DNA of 64,000 bases from contig CAVSPR010000004.1 of the NCBI GenBank assembly GCA_963729875.1, positions 442,046 to 506,045 of the forward strand. The letters are read 5' to 3'. The notes beneath the pieces are model-generated. The model saw only the letters and a program-made list of their open reading frames with translations. It did not search any database and was not told the origin of the DNA. The translations under genes and the position numbers were made by a program. Positions 9,781 to 64,000 of the stretch are shown here, in pieces. Source of the stretch: an uncultured Acidobacteriota bacterium. GTDB taxonomy: Bacteria; Acidobacteriota; Vicinamibacteria; Fen-336. Numbering within the stretch: position 1 is the stretch's first letter; every line of letters starts with the position of its first letter.

Positions 9781-10548
9781 TCACTCCTTCTCGCCGTGCT
9801 CGGCGGCCGCAACTTCCTCGCGCCGGTGGGTGATCCAGTAGATCGCCGAGAGGCCCACGGCGCCGCCGGCCACGACCTTGGGGATCTTCGACAGCGCCGC
9901 CCAGGTGAGGTTCGGCATCGGGTCGTTGCCGAGGCCGACCTTCATCCCGAGCTGCTCGAAGGGGACGGGGGAGAGGACGAAGACGTTCGTGCCTCCCACC
10001 GTGTGCTCGCCGTAGATCACGGGGTGGTACGCGCCGGGGTTCTCGGCGAGGCGCTTCTTCGCCTCGGCCAGCATCTCCTCGCGGGTGCCGCCGACCGTCG
10101 CCTCGGCCGGGCAGGCCTCGGTGCACGCGGTCGGCTTGCCGTCCTTCTGCCGCTCGAAGCAGCCGTCGCACTTGCGGACGACGGGGATCGGCTTCGACCA
10201 CTCGTAGCGCGGCACGTTGAAGGGGCAGGCGATCATGCAGTACCGGCAGCCCATGCACTTCGAGGCGTCGTAGACGACCGGGCCGAGCTCGGTTTTGGTG
10301 AAAGCGCCGACCGGGCACGCGCTCACGCAGCTCGGGTCGGCGCAGTGCATGCACATGCGGCGCAGGTAGCGGTCCTCGCCCTTGTCGAGGACCACGGTGT
10401 AGGTGGTCGCGTCGAGCTCCGTCTCCTCGCCGGTGCCGGGGAACTCGTGCGAGGCCTTGCAGGCCTTGGCGCACTCGTGGCAGCCGACGCAGCGGGTGAC
10501 GTCGAAGAGCAGGGCCCGCGACTTCGGGTTGGGCATCATCAGGGCCAT
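9781..10548 (-). CDS. 4x[4Fe-4S] ferredoxin-type iron-sulfur subunit (PsrB/HybA/FdnH-like) with C-terminal TM anchor; no Tat signal
   Basis: Four Cys clusters (CVGCHECAKAC, CMHCADPSCVSACP, CMGCRYCMIACP, CDGC...C...CP) and a C-terminal helix AGGAVGLSAIYWITH. Confidence 0.85.
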   Translation of the reverse strand: MALMMPNPKSRALLFDVTRCVGCHECAKACKASHEFPGTGEETELDATTYTVVLDKGEDRYLRRMCMHCADPSCVSACPVGAFTKTELGPVVYDASKCMGCRYCMIACPFNVPRYEWSKPIPVVRKCDGCFERQKDGKPTACTEACPAEATVGGTREEMLAEAKKRLAENPGAYHPVIYGEHTVGGTNVFVLSPVPFEQLGMKVGLGNDPMPNLTWAALSKIPKVVAGGAVGLSAIYWITHRREEVAAAEHGEKE

Positions 10549-55264: not shown

Positions 55265-57113
55265 ATGCCCGTCAAGCTCGGAGAACTGCTGCTGAAGGAG
55301 AACATGGTGTCTCCGCAGCAGCTCCAGGACGCGCTCAACCACCAGAAGATGAACGGGGGCAAGCTCGGCAAGGCCTTCGTCAGCCTGGGATTCGTGAAGG
55401 ACGAGGAGATCACCAGCCTTCTGTCGCGCCAGTACGGTGTCCCGTCGATCAACCTCGACCACTTCGAGGTCGATCCCGCGATCATCAAGATCATCCCCGC
55501 CGAGACGGCCCGGAAGTACCAGGTCCTGCCGCTGTCGCGCTCCGGCGCGACCCTCACGATCGCCATGGCCGACCCCACGAACGTGTTCGCCATGGACGAC
55601 ATCAAGTTCATGACGGGCTACAACGTGGAGCCGGTCGTGGCCTCGGAGAGCGCGCTCGAGGACGCGATCGAGCGCTACTACGGGTCGACCCGCTCGCTGG
55701 AGCTTCGGCGGGGGCACGGCGCGCCCGGCGGGGCGGCACGGGAGCCGGGCGGCAGCCCGGCCGGCCTCAAGGAGGTCATGGAGGGGCCGACCCTGAGCGT
55801 CGACGACATGGCCGCGATCGGCGGCCTGTCCGAGATCGACCTCGACTCGATGGGCGAGGCGGAGGCCGACGTCGAGACCGTCAAGAGCGAAGACGACGAG
55901 ATCGACCTCGGCAACCTGGCCAAGTCGGCCGACGCCGCGCCGGTCGTCAAGCTGACGAACGTGCTGCTCGTCGACTCGCTCAAGCGGGGGGCCTCGGACA
56001 TCCACATCGAGCCCTACGAGAAGGAGTTCCGGGTCCGCTTCCGGATCGACGGCATCCTGTACAACGTGATGGCGCTGCCGCATGAAGCTGCGGGACCCGC
56101 TCATCTCGCGCATCAAGATCATGGCCAAGCTGGACATCGCCGAGAAGCGCCTGCCCCAGGACGGGCGCATCAAGATCAAGATGAAGGTCGAGGACCGCAG
56201 CCGCGACCTCGACTTCCGCGTCTCCTGCCTGCCCACCCTGTGGGGCGAGAAGATCGTCATGCGGCTGCTCGACAAGTCGAAGCTGATGCTCGACATGACG
56301 AAGCTGGGCTTCGAGCCGCACTCGCTCGAGCGGTTCAAGCTCGCGATCTCCAAGCCCTACGGCATCGTCCTGGTGACCGGGCCGACCGGGTCGGGCAAGA
56401 CGAACACGCTCTACTCGGCGATCGCCGCGCTCAACAAGCCCGACACCAACATCATGACCGCCGAGGACCCGGTCGAGTTCAACCTGCCGGGGATCAACCA
56501 GGTCCAGATCAGGGACAACATCGGCCTCAACTTCGCGGCGGCGCTGCGCTCGTTCCTGCGCCAGGACCCGAACATCATCCTGGTCGGCGAGATCCGCGAC
56601 TACGAGACCGCGGAGATCGCGGTCAAGGCGGCCCTCACCGGGCACCTCGTGCTCTCGACCCTGCACACCAACGACGCGCCCTCCACCGTGTCGCGCATGG
56701 TCAACATGGGCATCGAGCCGTTCCTGGTCGGCACCGCGGTGAACCTGATCCAGGCCCAGCGCCTGGTGCGCCGCGTCTGCTCCAAGTGCAAGGTCGACGT
56801 CGCCGCCGACGTGCCGGCCAAGACGCTGATCGACATCGGCTTCACGCCCGAGCAGATCGGCACCTTCAAGGTCATGAAGGGCAAGGGTTGCGGGACCTGC
56901 AACGGCACCGGCTACAAGGGCCGGGTGGGCCTCTACGAGGTGATGGAGATCACCGAGGGGATCCGCGACCTGATCATGGTCGGGGCCACCGCGGTCGAGA
57001 TCAAGAGAAAGGCCCTCGAGGAGGGGATGCTCACCCTGCGCATGAGCGGCCTCGAGAAGATCAGAAACGGCGTGACGACCGTCGAGGAGGTCCTCCGGGA
57101 GACGGTTCTCTAG
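55265..57113 (+). CDS. pilB: Type IV pilus assembly ATPase PilB; single inserted base at ~56081
   Basis: N-terminal GSPII_E_N domain (ORF 55265..); the C-terminal ATPase continues in ORF 56082..57113 (GPTGSGKT Walker A, tetracysteine CSKC...CGTCNGTG). Junction ...ILYNVMALP|(M)KLRDPLISRIKIM. Confidence 0.85.
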
Positions 57114-57159
57114 CGCGACCGGGGGCTCCGGCCGTCGCGTCGGGATAAGGGGGTAGGGC

Positions 57160-58383
57160 GTGGCCGTCAGCCTTCACCAGTTGCTCAAGACCATGACGGA
57201 GATGGGGGGGACCGACCTCCACGTCACCACCAACTCCGCGCCGCAGATCCGCGTCGACGGCAAGCTGCGCCCGCTCGACCTGCCGCCGCTGTCGCCGGTC
57301 GAGACCAAGCAGCTCGCCTACAGCGTGCTGACCGACGCGCAGAAGCACCGCTTCGAGGAGAACCTCGAGCTCGACTTCAGCTTCGGCATCAAGGGCCTGG
57401 CCCGCTTCCGCGCGAACGTCTTCATGCAGCGCGGCGCGGTGGCGGCGGTCTACCGCACGATCCCCTACGAGATCCGCGGCTTCCGGGAGCTGGGGCTGCC
57501 CCCGGTGGTGTCCACGATCTGCGACAAGCCGCGCGGGCTGGTCCTGGTGACCGGGCCCACCGGCTCCGGCAAGTCGACGACGCTCGCCGCCATGCTCGAC
57601 AAGATCAACTCCGAGCGCCACGAGCACATGCTCACCATCGAGGACCCGATCGAGTACCTGCACCAGCACAAGAAGTGCGTGGTCAACCAGCGCGAGGTCC
57701 ACGCCGACACCCACTCCTTCGCCAACGCGCTGCGTGCCGCGCTGCGCGAGGACCCCGACGTCGTGCTGATCGGTGAGATGCGCGACCTGGAGACGATCGA
57801 GTCCGCCCTGCGCATCGCGGAGACCGGCCACTTCACCTTCGCCACCCTGCACACGAACTCGGCCTCCCAGACCATCAACCGCATCATCGACGTCTTCCCC
57901 GCGCACCAGCAGTCGCAGGTCCGGGCGCAGCTGTCGCTCGTGCTGGAGGGCATCATGTGCCAGGCCCTCCTCCCGCGCGCGAGCGGCAGCGGGCGCGCGA
58001 TGGCCATGGAGATCCTGGTCCCGAACCCCGCCATCCGCAACCTGATCCGGGAGGACAAGATCCACCAGATCTACTCCTCGATGCAGACCGGCCAGGAGAA
58101 GTACGGGATGCAGACCTTCAACCAGTCCCTGGCCAGCCTGTACTTCGCCAAGCAGATCACTCTGCAGACCGCCCTCGGCATCAGCTCGAACCCCGAGGAG
58201 CTGCAGGACATGATCAACCGCGGCGCCGGTCTCGCCACCCCGCAGACCGGGGGCCGCCGCCCGTGCGGCCGGCAGGCCGCTAGCTCCGGGAGGAAAAGAT
58301 GCCTGCTTTCGTCTGGAAGGGCAAGACGCGCGACGGCAAGGTCGTCTCCGGCGAGCGGGTCGCCGACAACAAGGAAGCGGTGA
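57160..58383 (+). CDS. pilT: Twitching-motility ATPase PilT; annotated frame overlaps pilC by 85 nt, true stop probably TAG at ~58280 after an indel near 58248-58253
   Basis: MAVSLHQLLKTMTEMGGTDLHVT..., GPTGSGKST Walker A, AIRNLIREDK. An alternative frame after the GGGGG run ends at a TAG 16 nt before the pilC RBS/ATG. Confidence 0.85.
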   Translation: MAVSLHQLLKTMTEMGGTDLHVTTNSAPQIRVDGKLRPLDLPPLSPVETKQLAYSVLTDAQKHRFEENLELDFSFGIKGLARFRANVFMQRGAVAAVYRTIPYEIRGFRELGLPPVVSTICDKPRGLVLVTGPTGSGKSTTLAAMLDKINSERHEHMLTIEDPIEYLHQHKKCVVNQREVHADTHSFANALRAALREDPDVVLIGEMRDLETIESALRIAETGHFTFATLHTNSASQTINRIIDVFPAHQQSQVRAQLSLVLEGIMCQALLPRASGSGRAMAMEILVPNPAIRNLIREDKIHQIYSSMQTGQEKYGMQTFNQSLASLYFAKQITLQTALGISSNPEELQDMINRGAGLATPQTGGRRPCGRQAASSGRKRCLLSSGRARRATARSSPASGSPTTRKR

Positions 58384-59502
58384 TGGCGCTGCTGCGGCGC
58401 GACCAGATCCTGGTCTCGTCGGTCAAGGAGAAGGGGCGCGAGATCGCCCTGCCGAAGTTCGGTGGGGGCGTGCCGGCCAAGGACCTCGCCATCTTCACCC
58501 GGCAGTTCTCGGTCATGATCGACGCCGGCCTGCCCCTCGTCCAGTGCCTCGAGATCCTGGGCGGCCAGCAGGAGAACAAGACCTTCGCCAAGGTCCTCCA
58601 GCAGACCCGCATGGACGTGGAGGGCGGGGCGAGCCTGGCCGACGCGATGCGCAAGCACCCCAAGGCCTTCGACGACCTCTTCACCAACATGATCGCGGCG
58701 GGCGAGGCGGGCGGCATCCTCGACACCATCCTCAAGCGCCTGGCGACCTACATCGAGAAGAACGTCAAGCTGAAGGCCCAGGTCAAGGGCGCCATGGTCT
58801 ACCCGATCTCGGTCATCAGCATCGCCGGCATCGTCATCAGCGTCATCCTCTGGAAGGTCATCCCCACCTTCGCCGCGATGTTCGCGGGCCTCGGCGCCGA
58901 GCTGCCGCTGCCCACGCGGTTCGTGATCGCGCTCTCCAACTGGCTGATCCGGCTGCTGCCCTTCCTCGTCGTGGGCGGCATCCTGGGAGTGATGGGGTTC
59001 AGGCGGTACTACGCCACCTACTGGCGGCCGGCGCGTCGTCGACAAGGTGGTGATCAACGCGCCCATCTTCGGCACCCTGATGCGGAAGATCGCCGTGGCC
59101 CGCTTCTGCCGCACCCTCTCGACCCTCATCTCCTCCGGCGTGCCCATCCTCGACGGCCTGGAGATCACCGCGCGGACGGCCGGCAACGCGATCGTCGAGG
59201 ACGCCATCATGGCCGTCCGCAAGGGGGTGGAGAGCGGCCTCACCATGGCCCAGCCCCTCAAGGAGACCGGGGTCTTCCCCGCGATGGTCGTCCAGATGAT
59301 CGGGGTCGGCGAGCAGACGGGCGCCCTCGACGCGATGCTCAGCAAGATCGCCGACTTCTACGAGGAGGAGGTGGACCAGGCGGTGGCCAACCTGCTCACC
59401 CTGATGGAGCCGGTCATGATCCTGTTCCTCGGCGTCACCGTCGGCGGCATCATCATCGCGATGTACCTGCCGCTGTTCGACCTCATCAGCAAGCTCTCCT
59501 GA
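58299..59502 (+). CDS. pilC: Type IV pilus inner-membrane platform protein PilC; frameshift at ~59025-59035
   Basis: N-terminal half in ORF 58299.. (MPAFVWKGKTRDGK...GSPII_F domain 1). C-terminal half in ORF 59047..59502 (VINAPIFGTLMRKIAVARFCRTLSTLISSGVPIL...). RBS GGAGGAAAAG precedes the ATG. Confidence 0.85.
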
Positions 59503-59652
59503 TGCCCCGCCCGGCGCCACGGCGCCGGGCGGAAGGACGATGAACACGCTCTCACCGAGGCTCTGGGGCAGGGACGGCCGGAGTATGGTGCGCTCGCGGG
59601 GAAGCGGTCGAGAGGGGGCACCGTCCAGGTCCGCCCGCGCTTCGCGCGGGCG

Positions 59653-61311
59653 GTGCGTATGAACGTCGCCCTGGACGGTCGGCTCCGGCGGCTGATGCTG
59701 TTCCGGGTGGTCATGGTGACCACCCTGCTCTTCCTCGTCACCTACGTCGAGGCGGTGTCGGAGACGCTCTTCGACGTCAACCCCGTCTACTTCGTCGTCG
59801 TCGCGACCTACGCCCTCACCGTCGTCTACGCCCTCGCGCTGCGCTTCGTGCCGCAGGGGGTGCCGCAGGCCTACGCCCAGGTGGTGGGGGACCTCCTCAT
59901 CATCACGGCCCTCGTGCAGGTCACCGGCGCCATCCGCACCGGCTTCCTGCTTCTGTACCCGCTCGCGGTGCTGGCCGCCGCCATGCTGGTGCCGAGGCGG
60001 GGCGCGCTCTACCTCGCGGGGCTGGCGACCGTGCTCTACGGGGGCCTGCTCCTGACCGTGCGCTCGGGGCTCCTGCTTCCCTACGGCCTGCGGGACGTGC
60101 TCGACGCCCCGCCGCGCGCGCTCGTCTACTCGGTCTTCGTGCTGGGGGTGGCCTGCGTGACGGTCGCCCTGCTGGGCACGTACCTGGCCGAGAGCCTGCA
60201 GCACGCCGGGAGGCAGCTGCGGGAGGCCGCGGTGGAGGTGGCCGACCTGCGCGGCCTCAACCAGGTCATCGTCGACAGCATCCAGAGCGGCCTGATGACG
60301 ACGGACGGCGAGGGCCGGATCCTGTACGTCAACGCCTTCGGCGAGAAGATCCTCGGGCGGCCGGCGGCGGCCGCGATAGGGCGCACGGTGCGCGAGCTGC
60401 TCGCGACGCCGCTGCTCGGCGGCCCCGAGCTCCAGGTGCGGGTCGCACGCCGGTCGCTCGCCCGGCTGGAGCTGTCCTACCAGCATCCCGAGGGTCGGCA
60501 GCGGGAGCTCGGGGTGTCGGTGACCCCGCTGGCGACCGGCGCCAGCGACCGGGGCGGCTACCTCGTGGCCTTCCAGGACCTGACCGAGATCCGCCGGCTC
60601 GAGCAGGAGGTGCGGACCAAGGAGAAGCTCGCGGCGGTGGGGGAGATGGCGGCCCTGCTCGCCCACGAGATCCGCAACCCGCTGGGCTCCATCCGGGGCT
60701 CGGCGCAGGTGCTCATGGGCGAGCCGGGCATCGCCGGCGAGCAGCAGCGCCTGCTCGAGATCATCTCCCGCGAGTCCAAGCGCCTCTCCGACACGCTCAA
60801 CCGCTTCCTCTACGAGGCCCGCTCGCCCGCCCGCCCGCGCGACCCGGTGGACCTCCGGCCGGTCCTGGAGTCGGCGGTCACGCTGCTACGCAACGCGGCC
60901 GAGGTGGGTCCGAGCCACGAGATTCGCTTCGAGGCGGACGAGGGCCCCCACGTGTGCCTGGCCGACCCGGACCAGATCGCGCAGGTATTCTGGAACCTCG
61001 CCCGCAACGCCCTCGAGGCGATGCCGGAAGGAGGGCGTCTCGACGTGGCCCTGCGCCGCACGGAGGGGGACGTCGTGCTGAGCGTGCGCGACCAGGGCCG
61101 GGGCATGGGCCGCGACGAGCAGCGCCGCCTCTTCGAGCCCCTGCCCGCCTCGGGTCGGCTGGGCGCCGGCCTCGGGCTCGCCATCGTCTTCCAGATCGTC
61201 CGCCAGCACGAGGGGGACATCACCGTGAAGAGCGTGGCCGACCAGGGCACGCAGTTCGACGTTCGGCTTCCCCTCGTCTCCGCCGGAGCACCGGCGGCCG
61301 CCCCGGCATGA
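59653..61311 (+). CDS. pilS: Sensor histidine kinase PilS (polytopic membrane domain, PAS, HisKA, HATPase)
   Basis: Six predicted TMs, a PAS-like region, H-box LAHEIRNPLGSIRGS, and N/G boxes. Confidence 0.85.
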   Translation: MRMNVALDGRLRRLMLFRVVMVTTLLFLVTYVEAVSETLFDVNPVYFVVVATYALTVVYALALRFVPQGVPQAYAQVVGDLLIITALVQVTGAIRTGFLLLYPLAVLAAAMLVPRRGALYLAGLATVLYGGLLLTVRSGLLLPYGLRDVLDAPPRALVYSVFVLGVACVTVALLGTYLAESLQHAGRQLREAAVEVADLRGLNQVIVDSIQSGLMTTDGEGRILYVNAFGEKILGRPAAAAIGRTVRELLATPLLGGPELQVRVARRSLARLELSYQHPEGRQRELGVSVTPLATGASDRGGYLVAFQDLTEIRRLEQEVRTKEKLAAVGEMAALLAHEIRNPLGSIRGSAQVLMGEPGIAGEQQRLLEIISRESKRLSDTLNRFLYEARSPARPRDPVDLRPVLESAVTLLRNAAEVGPSHEIRFEADEGPHVCLADPDQIAQVFWNLARNALEAMPEGGRLDVALRRTEGDVVLSVRDQGRGMGRDEQRRLFEPLPASGRLGAGLGLAIVFQIVRQHEGDITVKSVADQGTQFDVRLPLVSAGAPAAAPA

Positions 61312-61411
61312 CCGGACCCGCCCGGAAGGGTGCGCCACCCGCGCTTGAGGGATGCGCGACCGAGAGGGTAGCATTCGTGCGGTCACGGCACAGAGAGGAG
61401 GGGCGCGCGAG

Positions 61412-62782
61412 GTGAACCGGATCCTCATCGTCGACGACGAGCAGTCGATGAGGGACATGCTCGCCATCCTGCTCAGGAAGCAGGGGCTCGAGGTCCGCTC
61501 GGCGGGCAGCCGGGGTGAGGCGGCGGACGAGCTGGCCCGGGCGGCCTTCGACCTCGTGCTCACCGACGTCAAGCTCCCGGACGGGGACGGCCTCGAGATC
61601 CTGAGGCACGTCAAGGCGGCCTCGCCGGGTACCGCGGTCGTGGTCATGACCGCCTACGGCACCACCGAGACGGCCGTCGCCGCCCGCAAGCTGGGGGCCG
61701 AGGCCTACATCCTCAAGCCCTTCGACGTGGACGAGCTGCGCATCGTCGTGCGCGACGCGCTCGCCAACCGGAGCCTGCGGGAGGAGAACCTCCGCCTCCG
61801 GCGCGAGGTGGGCCAGGTCTACGGCCTCGACCGGGTGATCGGCGTCTCCCAGGTCATGGCGTCCCTGTTCGAGATGGTCCGCGCGATCGCGCCGACCAGC
61901 TCCACCGTGCTCGTCGAAGGGGAGAGCGGCACCGGGAAGGAGCTGGTCGCCAAGGCCATTCACGGCCTGTCCGGGCGGGCCGGCGGCCCCTTCGTGAGCG
62001 TGAACTGCGGAGCCCTGCCCGACACCCTGCTCGAGAGCGAGCTGTTCGGGTACATGAAGGGGGCCTTCACCGACGCGCGGCAGAGCCGCAAGGGACTCTT
62101 CGAGGCGGCGATCGGAGGGACGCTCTTCCTCGACGAGGTGGGGGAGACCTCTCCTCCGATGCAGGTCAAGCTGCTCCGGGCCTTGCAGGAGCGCCGCATC
62201 CGGCGGGTCGGGGGCACGGAGGAGATCGACGTGGACGTGAGGGTGATCGCGGCCACGAACGTCTCGCTCGAGAGCCTGGTCGAGCAGAAGCGGTTCCGCG
62301 AGGACCTCTTCTACCGCCTCCAGGTCATTCCCATCCGAACGCCCACGCTTCGCGAGCGCCGCGAGGACATCCCGCTCCTGGCCGAGCACTTCCTGGGACG
62401 CTTCGCCCGGCAGATGGGGAAGCGGGTCGCCAAGATCTCGGAGGAGGCGATGTCCCTCCTGCAGGACTTCACCTGGCCGGGAAACGTGCGCCAGCTCGAG
62501 AACGTGATCGAGCGGGCGGTCGCGTTGGAGACGACCGAGGCCGTGCTGCCGGAGCGGCTCCCCGAGGAGATCCGGCGCCCGACGCGCTCGGAGCCGTTGC
62601 CCGCGATGGGGGACGGCTTCAGCCTCGACGCGTACCTGCTGTCGGTCGAGGCCCGCCTCCTGGGCGAGGCCCTGGACCGCGCGCGCGGGGATCGGGCCGA
62701 CGCGGCGCGGCTGCTGGGGGTCTCCCCGCGTTCGCTGCGCTACCTCCTGCAGAAGCACGGCGGGGTGGGCGACAAGAATTGA
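61412..62782 (+). CDS. pilR: Sigma54-dependent response regulator PilR (NtrC family)
   Basis: REC (ILIVDDEQSMRDML...LTDVKLPDGDG), AAA+ (EGESGTGKE; GAFTDA sigma54-contact), C-terminal HTH. Alternative ATG at 61352. Confidence 0.9.
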   Translation: MNRILIVDDEQSMRDMLAILLRKQGLEVRSAGSRGEAADELARAAFDLVLTDVKLPDGDGLEILRHVKAASPGTAVVVMTAYGTTETAVAARKLGAEAYILKPFDVDELRIVVRDALANRSLREENLRLRREVGQVYGLDRVIGVSQVMASLFEMVRAIAPTSSTVLVEGESGTGKELVAKAIHGLSGRAGGPFVSVNCGALPDTLLESELFGYMKGAFTDARQSRKGLFEAAIGGTLFLDEVGETSPPMQVKLLRALQERRIRRVGGTEEIDVDVRVIAATNVSLESLVEQKRFREDLFYRLQVIPIRTPTLRERREDIPLLAEHFLGRFARQMGKRVAKISEEAMSLLQDFTWPGNVRQLENVIERAVALETTEAVLPERLPEEIRRPTRSEPLPAMGDGFSLDAYLLSVEARLLGEALDRARGDRADAARLLGVSPRSLRYLLQKHGGVGDKN

Positions 62783-62789
62783 CCCGTTG

Positions 62790-63209
62790 ACAATTCTCGT
62801 CCGGGGCCGGCTCGATTCCGACACCAGTACACGTTGAAAAAGCTGGACTTATGCCCTGCGAGGCACATGGCAGGCGGATTGCTTGCAGTAAGGAATAAGG
62901 TATGAGTGCCTCCATTGAAAGGAAGGCTGAGCAGATGAAAAAGCAAAAGGGTTTCACCCTGATCGAGCTGCTGATCGTCGTGGCGATCATCGGCATCATC
63001 GCGGCGATCGCGATCCCGAGCCTCCTCCGGGCGCGCGTGTCGGCCAACGAATCGGCCACCATCGGCGACATCCGGACGGTCATTTCGGGGCAGGCTGCCT
63101 ACCAGTCCGCCAACGGCGGCTGGTACGCGGGCAACTTCACGTGCTTGAGCGTCCCGAGCGGCGGCGGCTGCATTCCCAACTACCTCACCACCGCGCCGAC
63201 GTTCCTCGA
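62790..63209 (+). repeat. Tandem duplication unit 1 (pilA promoter + 5' ~270 nt of pilA); ~98% identical to 63581-64000
   Basis: Direct alignment at an offset of 791 bp shows only a handful of substitutions across the promoter, RBS and first ~90 codons. Confidence 0.8.
62868..62883 (+). promoter_or_regulatory. Sigma54 (RpoN) -24/-12 promoter TGGCAG-N5-TTGCT for pilA1
   Basis: TGGCAGGCGGATTGCT matches the TGGCAC-N5-TTGCW consensus. PilR (a sigma54 activator) is encoded immediately upstream. Confidence 0.65.
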
Positions 63210-63474
63210 CAGCGCGATCACCGGTCTGCAGGCCAAGTCCGGCTACAACCGCACCTTCTCCCCTGGCAACACCGTCACCGTGAACACCCTGGTTTCCGGC
63301 ACCGCCAGCGTCGCGAGCTTCGCCTATGCCTCGACCCCGGTGACCTCCGGCCAGACGGGCGTCCGCGGGTTCGCCGGGGACGCGAGCGGCGTCCTCTGCT
63401 TCAACGCGAACGGCTCGGCGTTCCCGATCACCACCGGCGCGCTCGATCTCGCCGCCTGCAACATCCTGCAGTAA
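62935..63474 (+). CDS. pilA: Type IV major pilin PilA, copy 1
   Basis: MKKQKGFTLIELLIVVAIIGIIAAIAIPSL prepilin leader/methylation motif with Glu at +5, C-terminal Cys pair. RBS AGGAAGG upstream. Confidence 0.9.
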   Translation: MKKQKGFTLIELLIVVAIIGIIAAIAIPSLLRARVSANESATIGDIRTVISGQAAYQSANGGWYAGNFTCLSVPSGGGCIPNYLTTAPTFLDSAITGLQAKSGYNRTFSPGNTVTVNTLVSGTASVASFAYASTPVTSGQTGVRGFAGDASGVLCFNANGSAFPITTGALDLAACNILQ

Positions 63475-63493
63475 GCTGGCTCGCGCCGCACGT

Positions 63494-63527
63494 GGGGCCC
63501 GGGGGCGACCCCGGGCCTCCTTTTTTT
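63494..63527 (+). terminator. Rho-independent terminator GGCCCGGGGG-cgac-CCCCGGGCC followed by TTTTTTT, downstream of pilA1
   Basis: Seen directly: a perfect GC stem plus a 7-T tract. Confidence 0.65.
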
Positions 63528-63661
63528 GGGGACAGTTCCACGTTCGTCAGCGGGCAAGGTGCCGACGAGAATTGACGGCTTGACAATTCTTGTCAAGGGG
63601 CCGGCTCGATTCCGACACCAGTACACATTGAAAAAGCAGGACTTATGCCCTGTAAGGCACA

Positions 63662-63677
63662 TGGCAGGCGGATTGCT
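63662..63677 (+). promoter_or_regulatory. Sigma54 -24/-12 promoter TGGCAG-N5-TTGCT for pilA2
   Basis: Identical core to the pilA1 promoter. Confidence 0.65.
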
Positions 63678-63725
63678 TACCACACAGGCAGCCATGCGAT
63701 GCTATGGCGAAAGGAAGGTTGAGCA

Positions 63726-64000
63726 GATGAAGAAGCAGAAGGGCTTCACCCTGATCGAGCTGCTGATCGTCGTGGCGATCATCGGCATCATCGCGGCGAT
63801 CGCGATCCCGAGCCTCCTCCGGGCGCGCGTGTCGGCCAACGAGTCGGCCACCATCGGCGACATCCGGACGGTCATTTCGGGGCAGGCTGCCTACCAGTCC
63901 GCCAACGGCGGCTGGTACGCGGGCAACATCACGTGCCTGAGCGTCCCGAGCGGCGGGGGCTGCATTCCCAACTACCTCAACACCGCGCCGACGTTCCTCG
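63726..64000 (+). CDS. pilA: Type IV pilin PilA, copy 2; 3' end beyond the window
   Basis: MKKQKGFTLIELLIVVAIIGIIAAIAIPSLLRARVSANESATIGDIRTVISGQAAYQSANGGWYAGNITCLSVPSGGGCIPNYLNTAPTF differs from copy 1 at only two or three residues so far. Confidence 0.85.

Follow-up and report, generated by a model that had tools for sequence, protein, structure and literature searches.

The 64 kb window analysed here, which is the whole stretch from position 442,046 to 506,045 of contig CAVSPR010000004.1 (assembly GCA_963729875.1, from an uncultured soil bacterium of the class Vicinamibacteria, phylum Acidobacteriota), ends in two near-identical type IV pilin genes, pilA1 and pilA2. The genes are arranged head-to-tail, directly downstream of a pilB-pilT-pilC-pilS-pilR cluster. 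Taken as a whole, the observations are probably best explained by an old array of pilA genes, driven by PilR and sigma-54, whose copies have been kept alike by conversion. An earlier, sequence-only reading of the same DNA had proposed the near-identical pair. The pair itself is real, although some of the details given for it were not correct.

The first gene, pilA1, lies on the forward strand at 62935-63474, encodes a 179-residue prepilin, and is preceded by a ribosome-binding site (AGGAAGG) at 62920-62926. The second gene, pilA2, starts at 63727 on the same strand and leaves the window after 91 codons (63727-64000), with its 3' part lying outside. The two genes are offset by 792–794 nucleotides (nt), in agreement with the head-to-tail duplication of a unit of about 791 bp that had been reported. 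The two units were aligned segment by segment. A palindrome region (62770-62801 in copy 1 and 63563-63594 in copy 2) is identical at 27 of 32 positions, and it is followed by a promoter block (62802-62884 and 63596-63678) with 78 of 83 positions identical (94%). The next segment, a patch within the leader (62885-62915 and 63679-63707), is not alignable, and the ribosome-binding site and coding sequence (62916-63208 and 63708-64000) are again nearly identical (283/293). Within the visible coding DNA, 265 of 273 nt are shared, and the differences comprise six synonymous and two non-synonymous changes. The identity of about 98% that had been assigned to promoter, leader, and the first 90 or so codons together does not apply to the leader, and the promoter block is at 94%. 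Similarly, the two protein differences had been given as N80I and T97N, but are F68I and T85N from pilA1 to pilA2 (F79I and T96N in the numbering of a 190-residue open reading frame).

Comparison with database proteins shows that pilA2 is complete. Its closest match is a 179-residue protein, P0001, that contains all 91 visible pilA2 residues, including I68 and N85. The cluster of P0001 at 90% identity has only one other member, the 190-residue call for PilA1, and each of the two is found on one contig, both of 1,269,529 bp. Because P0001 matches exactly and has PilA1 as its sole cluster partner, pilA2 is taken as a full-length gene, and P0001 is likely to be its full product. The lack of a complete open reading frame in the downstream copy had been named as a finding that would undo the tandem-gene proposal; however, a complete frame of 179 codons is present by way of P0001. 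Over this length, the two proteins are 95% identical, and the 9 residues (of 179) that distinguish them are all at position 68 or later.

Both copies have the prepilin motif MKKQKG/FTLIEL. The leader reads MKKQKG/FTLIELLIVVAIIGIIAAIAIP, a class III signal peptide (Gly at −1, Phe at +1, and Glu at +5) that precedes a hydrophobic N-terminal helix; Pro22 is present in PilA1. PilA1 also matches the Pfam N_methyl (2.9e-11) and TIGR02532 (6.4e-10) profiles, and its AlphaFold model (pLDDT 88.9) has a helix at residues 9–59 followed by a four-stranded sheet. Four cysteines are invariant. The relatives of PilA1 in public genomes are nearly all from metagenome-assembled genomes (MAGs) of Vicinamibacteria or Acidobacteriota. 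No close solved relative of the head domain was found by sequence or by Foldseek. The N_methyl match, the prepilin motif, the fold of the model, and the context of the pil cluster support the assignment of both genes as type IV pilin genes. The array is likely to hold two or more intact genes for type IVa pilins, each with a predicted role as major subunit. The idea that pilA1 is a decaying copy was dropped, as the evidence is mixed: the family consensus residue is in PilA2 at positions 129, 133, and 147, and in PilA1 at positions 93 and 171.

The completeness of pilA2 also bears on whether the pair might serve pilin variation of the Neisseria type, in which one gene is expressed and a second copy is a silent donor cassette. 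The near identity of the copies, the evidence for conversion (see below), and the confinement of all protein differences to the globular part from residue 68 would each be in keeping with such a system. However, the second copy has an activator site, a sigma-54 promoter, a ribosome-binding site, a start codon, a full signal peptide, and a complete open reading frame, and differences at 9 of 179 residues offer little diversity. Donor copies in a silent-cassette system should lack the promoter and the 5' end of the coding sequence, both of which are retained in pilA2, and this explanation was rejected as highly improbable.

The array was compared with related public loci (labelled L001 and so on), in which pilA copies were located by tblastn. 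Of the 28 loci that could be assessed, 17 have two or three pilA genes after pilSR, and tandem pilA arrays are the norm in the Vicinamibacteria. These arrays are of two types. In the first, a separate promoter and activator site precede every copy (the window, L003, L004, L013, and L021). In the second, the downstream pilin gene has neither a sigma-54 promoter nor an activator site and follows a GC-rich, terminator-like hairpin (L008, L011, L012, L016, L023, L025, L027, and L028). Downstream pilins of the second type are often diverged.

The presence of arrays in at least 17 independent assemblies, from short-read and long-read assemblers alike, also argues against an assembly artefact in which a single pilA gene was expanded to two, as might happen when a metagenome contains strain variants. 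It is true that the window is apparently a metagenome-assembled contig with errors of the indel type (pilB and pilC are split across frames). Additionally, in one related short-read MAG (JBGASI01), three contigs (L009, L031, and L032) end or begin inside pilA, which is the expected result if near-identical copies break the assembly; pilin copy number in MAGs is probably undercounted. However, the flanks of the two copies in the window differ, with copy 1 abutting pilR and copy 2 following a terminator and a spacer of its own, and their leaders differ by approximately 30 nt of unrelated sequence. The two proteins are also called separately on the public contig of 1.27 Mb. An artefact is therefore very unlikely.

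If the copies have been homogenised by recombination, then paralogues are expected to resemble each other more within than between genomes, and this is the observed pattern, synonymous sites included. Protein identity between copies of the same genome is 95–99% in the window, L003 (three copies), L004 (three copies), L013, and L028, whereas the best between-species match in the variable part of the protein (residue 61 to the end) is 42–76%. A neighbour-joining tree built from this variable part places paralogues of the same genome together in most lineages. The exceptions are L011 and L016 and, in part, L023 and L025, which group by array position, so both old diverged duplicates and homogenised duplicates exist. 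In L003, L004, L013, and L028, the coding DNA of the copies is 95–98.5% identical, with 5–17 synonymous codon differences per pair, and yet the region from −170 to −21 is only 47–64% identical. The boundaries of the similar tracts are thus sharp in the relatives; the evidence for such boundaries is weaker in the window, where the leader patch lies inside sequence that is 94–97% identical. The sharp edges, together with the homogenised synonymous sites, point to gene conversion rather than to selection or recent duplication, and it is likely that the pilA copies have been kept alike by gene conversion acting on an old array, that is, by concerted evolution. For the window genome itself, conversion rather than re-duplication is suggested mainly by analogy, as the evidence is strongest in the relatives.

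The alternative is that the whole unit arose by a very recent, lineage-specific tandem duplication, or was re-duplicated by unequal crossover, without any conversion. The similarity within the window is of the type expected of whole-unit duplication, since it extends from the outer part of the upstream activator site (site A, described below) through the promoter and into the coding sequence at 84–97% identity, and copy 2 retains, ahead of its site A, a small remnant of the 3' end of pilR. In contrast, a non-alignable leader patch of about 30 nt separates blocks of 94–97% identity, the array edge next to pilR cannot be homogenised by unequal crossover, and recent duplication cannot explain the difference between coding and upstream identity in the four other species. 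Additionally, the closest relative with an array (L004, an MFD locus whose PilR is 89% identical to that of the window) has three pilA copies with the same unit of 790/792 nt, its intergenic regions contain sequence that matches the terminator of the window, and the spacer between its pilA1 and pilA2 shares the GACGAGAATTGAC variant of site A that is found in copy 2. This suggests that the array predates the split between the window genome and L004. Recent duplication or re-duplication of the whole unit is therefore considered fairly unlikely. Of the two origins that the sequence-only reading had allowed for, very recent duplication and ongoing gene conversion, the latter, acting on an old array, is favoured by the comparative data. 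As to the extent of conversion in the Vicinamibacteria, it is possible, though doubtful, that it is generally confined to the coding sequence and terminator, leaving activator sites, promoters, and leaders free to diverge.

Each copy is preceded by an element that may be the binding site of PilR. As had been reported, a perfect palindrome is present upstream of copy 2 (CTTGACAATTCTTGTCAAG, 19 nt at 63579-63597, 65 nt before the −24 element), and a degenerate version is present in copy 1 (62786-62802). The palindrome is the promoter-proximal half of a two-part site that consists of GACAAGAATTGAC, 5 nt, and TGACA-N5-TGTCA. In copy 1, site A (GACAAGAATTGAC, 62771-62783, forward strand) overlaps the pilR stop codon (62780-62782) and is conserved in relatives, and site B (TGACAATTCTCGTCC, 62788-62802, forward strand), located 80 nt before the start of the promoter, agrees with TGACA-N5-TGTCA at 8 of its 10 specified positions. 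In copy 2, site A (GACGAGAATTGAC, 63564-63576, forward strand) has an A-to-G substitution, and site B (TGACAATTCTTGTCA, 63581-63595, forward strand), the core of the 19-nt palindrome, matches at all 10. Relative to the predicted transcription starts, the centres of sites A and B lie near −117 and −99, 18 bp from each other.

The 200 nt upstream of every pilA gene were extracted in 30 related loci, and sites were scored at a threshold of at least 8 of 10 matches to TGACA-N5-TGTCA. Most first copies and many later copies have a GG-N10-GC promoter 55–75 nt before the ATG, and in more than 20 species TGACA-N5-TGTCA starts 78–82 nt upstream of this promoter, relative to a background of 0.03 sites per 200 nt. 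About 18 nt upstream of this palindrome, and approximately 96–100 nt before the promoter, is another, more degenerate site of the GACAAGAATTGAC type. The pair of sites is also found before pilA copies that do not adjoin pilR (copy 3 of L003, copies 2 and 3 of L004, both copies of L013, and L006), which marks it as an element of the DNA itself rather than a remnant of a coding region. Given the fixed spacing to a sigma-54 promoter, and given that PilR is encoded alongside, a site for an enhancer-binding protein is the natural reading. The TGACA-N5-TGTCA pair is therefore a good candidate for the PilR enhancer on comparative evidence, and the earlier proposal that the palindrome has this function is strengthened by its conservation at fixed spacing.

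The palindrome could instead be bound by a different regulator, or could act as an RNA hairpin where pilR ends. As RNA, the palindrome of copy 2 would form an 8-bp hairpin (−8.2 kcal/mol, z = −2.9), and the motif is unlike the hallmarks of Pseudomonas aeruginosa PilR sites, which are TGT-N11-AGA plus GTCT elements (PMC6058289). However, no T-run follows the palindrome, and the 78–82 nt spacing is maintained also before pilA copies located away from pilR. Moreover, transcription from a sigma-54 promoter depends on an enhancer-binding protein, and the one encoded nearby is PilR. The spacing of one helical turn between the two half-sites is the geometry usual for dimers of the NtrC family. A function other than PilR binding is hence quite unlikely.

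Both copies also have a predicted sigma-54 promoter. A −24/−12 element, TGGCAGGCGGATTGCT, is present at 62868-62883 and at 63662-63677 (both on the forward strand), 65–67 nt before the respective pilA ATG, with predicted transcription starts near 62894 and 63688, and the element is conserved in relatives. TGGCAS-N5-TTGCW matches the 64 kb at these two places and nowhere else, against an expectation of 0.02 matches, and the TGGCAG-N5-TTGCT element that had been assigned to each copy is thereby borne out. A mis-spaced pattern, GGCA-N7-TTGC, gave two irrelevant matches and was discarded, and no sigma-70-like promoter was found in the pilA region. Between the copies, a pattern scan and RNA folding both identify a strong intrinsic terminator on the forward strand (63494-63529), in which a GC-rich stem (63494-63519; 10 pairs in the RNA fold and 11 in the pattern scan) is followed by seven T. 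The separate sigma-54 elements and the intervening terminator support the prediction that the two pilA genes are transcribed as separate units.

In both copies (62833-62857 and 63627-63651), and likewise in relatives, the DNA that separates the activator site from the −24 element contains a conserved, AT-richer tract (...CATTGA...A[G/C]TTA...). Judged by eye, this tract fits the IHF consensus WATCAANNNNTTR or its complement in L001, copy 1 of L004, and L016, and it may serve as a site of DNA bending.

In contrast to the promoters, the 5' leaders of the two copies are partly unrelated. On the basis of the predicted starts, the non-alignable patch is the first half of each leader. The pilA1-specific patch (62885-62915, forward strand) is unrelated in sequence to copy 2 and to the relatives, and a blastn-short search against all related loci returned no match that could be its source. 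It contains an in-frame ATG at 62902, which is 33 nt upstream of the conserved start. Public annotation starts PilA1 at this ATG, giving the 190-residue product with a leader peptide of 17 residues, an extension that is found in no relative. The leader of pilA2 instead has a stem-loop (GCCAUG-CGAUGC-UAUGGC, 63691-63708, forward strand) that abuts a GAAAGGAAGG ribosome-binding box at 63709-63718. A comparable stem-loop (GCCAN-loop-NUGGC) abuts GAAAGGAAGG in most relatives (L001-L027), with inner pairs that vary in a compensatory manner, and is absent from the pilA1 leader. Perfect stems of at least 5 bp occur at this position in 21 of 35 leaders, relative to a mean of 3.6 and a maximum of 11 in shuffled controls. 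Neither the pilA1 leader nor the pilA2 leader folds more stably than shuffled sequence (z = +0.26 and +0.62, respectively), so the hairpin is indicated by comparative evidence only. An Rfam scan of 62600-64000 returned sub-threshold matches of the terminator type and no family for the stem-loop. Whether the difference between the leaders affects mRNA stability or translation is a matter of speculation.

Upstream of the array, pilS (59653-61311, forward strand) encodes a sensor histidine kinase with the six-transmembrane (6-TM) domain of PilS (Pfam 6TM_PilS, PF25323, 4.6e-16) and PAS, HisKA, and HATPase_c domains. It is followed by pilR (61352-62782, forward strand), which encodes a sigma-54 activator of the NtrC family with a receiver domain (Response_reg), the sigma-54 AAA+ domain (Sigma54_activat, 1.3e-69), AAA_lid_14, and a Fis-type helix-turn-helix (HTH_8). 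No NCBIfam equivalog was found at cutoff for either protein. The last codons of pilR, GAC AAG AAT TGA (Asp-Lys-Asn and stop), are the same bases as site A of pilA1, so that the C terminus of PilR is encoded by what is presumably a binding site for PilR itself. The end of pilR doubles as site A also in L004, L010, L012, L014, L015, and L016. In L006 (CAVRVE010000009.1), a pilA gene with the palindrome and a sigma-54 promoter is present at 10001-10543, and no pilS or pilR was detected in the 10 kb upstream; the pilin unit can thus sit apart from pilSR. Further upstream in the window, PilB, PilT, and PilC are likewise recognised by Pfam. The reading frames of pilB (55265-57148) and pilC (58299-59543) switch relative to relatives, near 56073-56098 and near 59023-59078, respectively, and the open reading frame of pilT (57160-58383) extends about 37 codons past the end of its homologues. 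These irregularities are probably indel errors of long-read assembly rather than signs of pseudogenes. The pilB gene of L004 has breaks similar to those of the window.

Several observations weigh against an old, PilR-driven array homogenised by conversion. The promoter block of the window is itself 94% identical between copies, and re-duplication or unequal crossover followed by replacement of a small part of the leader would give the same picture. The evidence that the array is older than the split from L004 is suggestive only, and is made up of equal unit lengths, a single substitution in common, and junctions that resemble each other. Because of the apparent frameshifts in pilB and pilC, single-base indels in this region are unreliable. 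With regard to regulation, the AAA+ loop of PilR at residue 237 reads GAFTDA and not the textbook GAFTGA, and an RpoN box, sought in six-frame translations of the window and of all related loci, was not found. GAFTDA is also the reading in the related loci for 23 of 25 motifs of the PilR type.

Under the preferred explanation, in which conversion maintains an old PilR/sigma-54 array, each unit would comprise, in order, a two-part activator site, a sigma-54 −24/−12 promoter, a short leader, a strong ribosome-binding site, the coding sequence, and an intrinsic terminator. PilS would phosphorylate PilR, dimers of PilR would bind both inverted-repeat sites (centres near −117 and −99), and the bound PilR would form an active AAA+ ring that, by way of DNA looping, could remodel sigma-54 RNA polymerase at each promoter. 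Both pilA genes would then be activated at the same time and feed a common pool of pilin, with higher dosage and possibly mixed filaments. Binding by PilR, dependence on sigma-54, and co-expression of the copies are all predicted here from DNA and protein sequence. The converted tract in the window would extend over the promoter and activator site, and some 30 nt of the pilA1 leader would have been replaced, so that the two mRNAs would have distinct 5' ends and might not be equally stable or equally well translated.

If conversion in the class is indeed largely confined to the coding sequence and terminator, then a single pilin product would come under the control of several tunable regions. 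As an alternative, new alleles of the pilin could spread rapidly through all copies, for instance under pressure from phages or predators. The two copies in the window would already differ in mRNA fate, with pilA1 having lost the class-conserved leader hairpin and having the weaker site B. The analysis also provides a testable candidate for the PilR operator of the class, namely two GACA-N5-TGTC sites approximately 100–117 bp upstream of a sigma-54 promoter, and the array would be a clean natural example of concerted evolution in a gene for a bacterial surface structure. To our knowledge, the type IV pili of soil Acidobacteriota are essentially unstudied. The current understanding of pilin regulation is not overturned, and the locus is a tidy and fairly ordinary example of a known layout.

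That layout can be compared with Myxococcus xanthus, in which the order of the cluster is the same (pilB-pilT-pilC-pilS-pilR-pilA). The reference strain of M. xanthus is not known to have more than a single pilA gene, whereas the window has at least two near-identical copies, each with a promoter and an activator site of its own. The M. xanthus pilA gene has a sigma-54 promoter that is used by PilR (PMC6211767), and the regulatory logic, in which PilSR and sigma-54 control pilA, matches that predicted for the window. The N-terminal helix of the window pilin matches the NCBIfam model for myxobacterial PilA weakly. However, the pilin has no sequence similarity to that of M. xanthus beyond residue 60, and its host belongs to a different phylum, the Acidobacteriota.

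In P. aeruginosa, pilA is presumably not located directly downstream of pilR, unlike in the window. A 6-TM PilS and an NtrC-type PilR are common to both, and PilS-PilR drives the P. aeruginosa pilA gene from a sigma-54 promoter (PMC6058289). The hallmarks of its PilR sites, TGT-N11-AGA plus GTCT (PMC6058289), are different from the TGACA-N5-TGTCA pair. Additionally, P. aeruginosa has a single pilA gene, as opposed to at least two. The upstream-site layout of NtrC also resembles the arrangement in the window. As in the NtrC family, two adjacent inverted-repeat sites lie approximately 100–120 bp upstream of a −24/−12 promoter, with an AT-richer tract, possibly a bending site, between the sites and the promoter; in contrast, the half-site sequence in the window is specific to the class, and the distance of 18 bp from centre to centre is shorter than that between the classic glnA sites.

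Adjacent pilin genes of high identity are also found elsewhere. Streptococcus sanguinis has two or three adjacent major pilin genes (pilA1-3, or pilE1/pilE2), of which PilA1 and PilA3 are 94% identical with identical N-termini, and experiments showed that these pilins are not functionally equivalent (PMC11121087). The value of 94% is comparable to the 95% in the window, but S. sanguinis is Gram-positive, and no control by sigma-54 or PilR is described there (PMC11121087). Similarly, the pilA1-pilA2 locus of Legionella pneumophila encodes two related pilins, both predicted to be major, in a genome that has PilS and PilR (PMC13170364). However, only PilA2 is a confirmed pilus subunit in that species, loss of pilR barely changed pilA2 mRNA, and pilSR forms a separate operon.

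Finally, the pilE/pilS system of Neisseria involves non-reciprocal recombination between copies of a pilin gene. This recombination system is mentioned in PMC4569582. Its donors are silent, promoterless, and truncated at the 5' end, and they generate diversity, whereas the copies in the window are complete and have promoters, and the recombination between them would homogenise.

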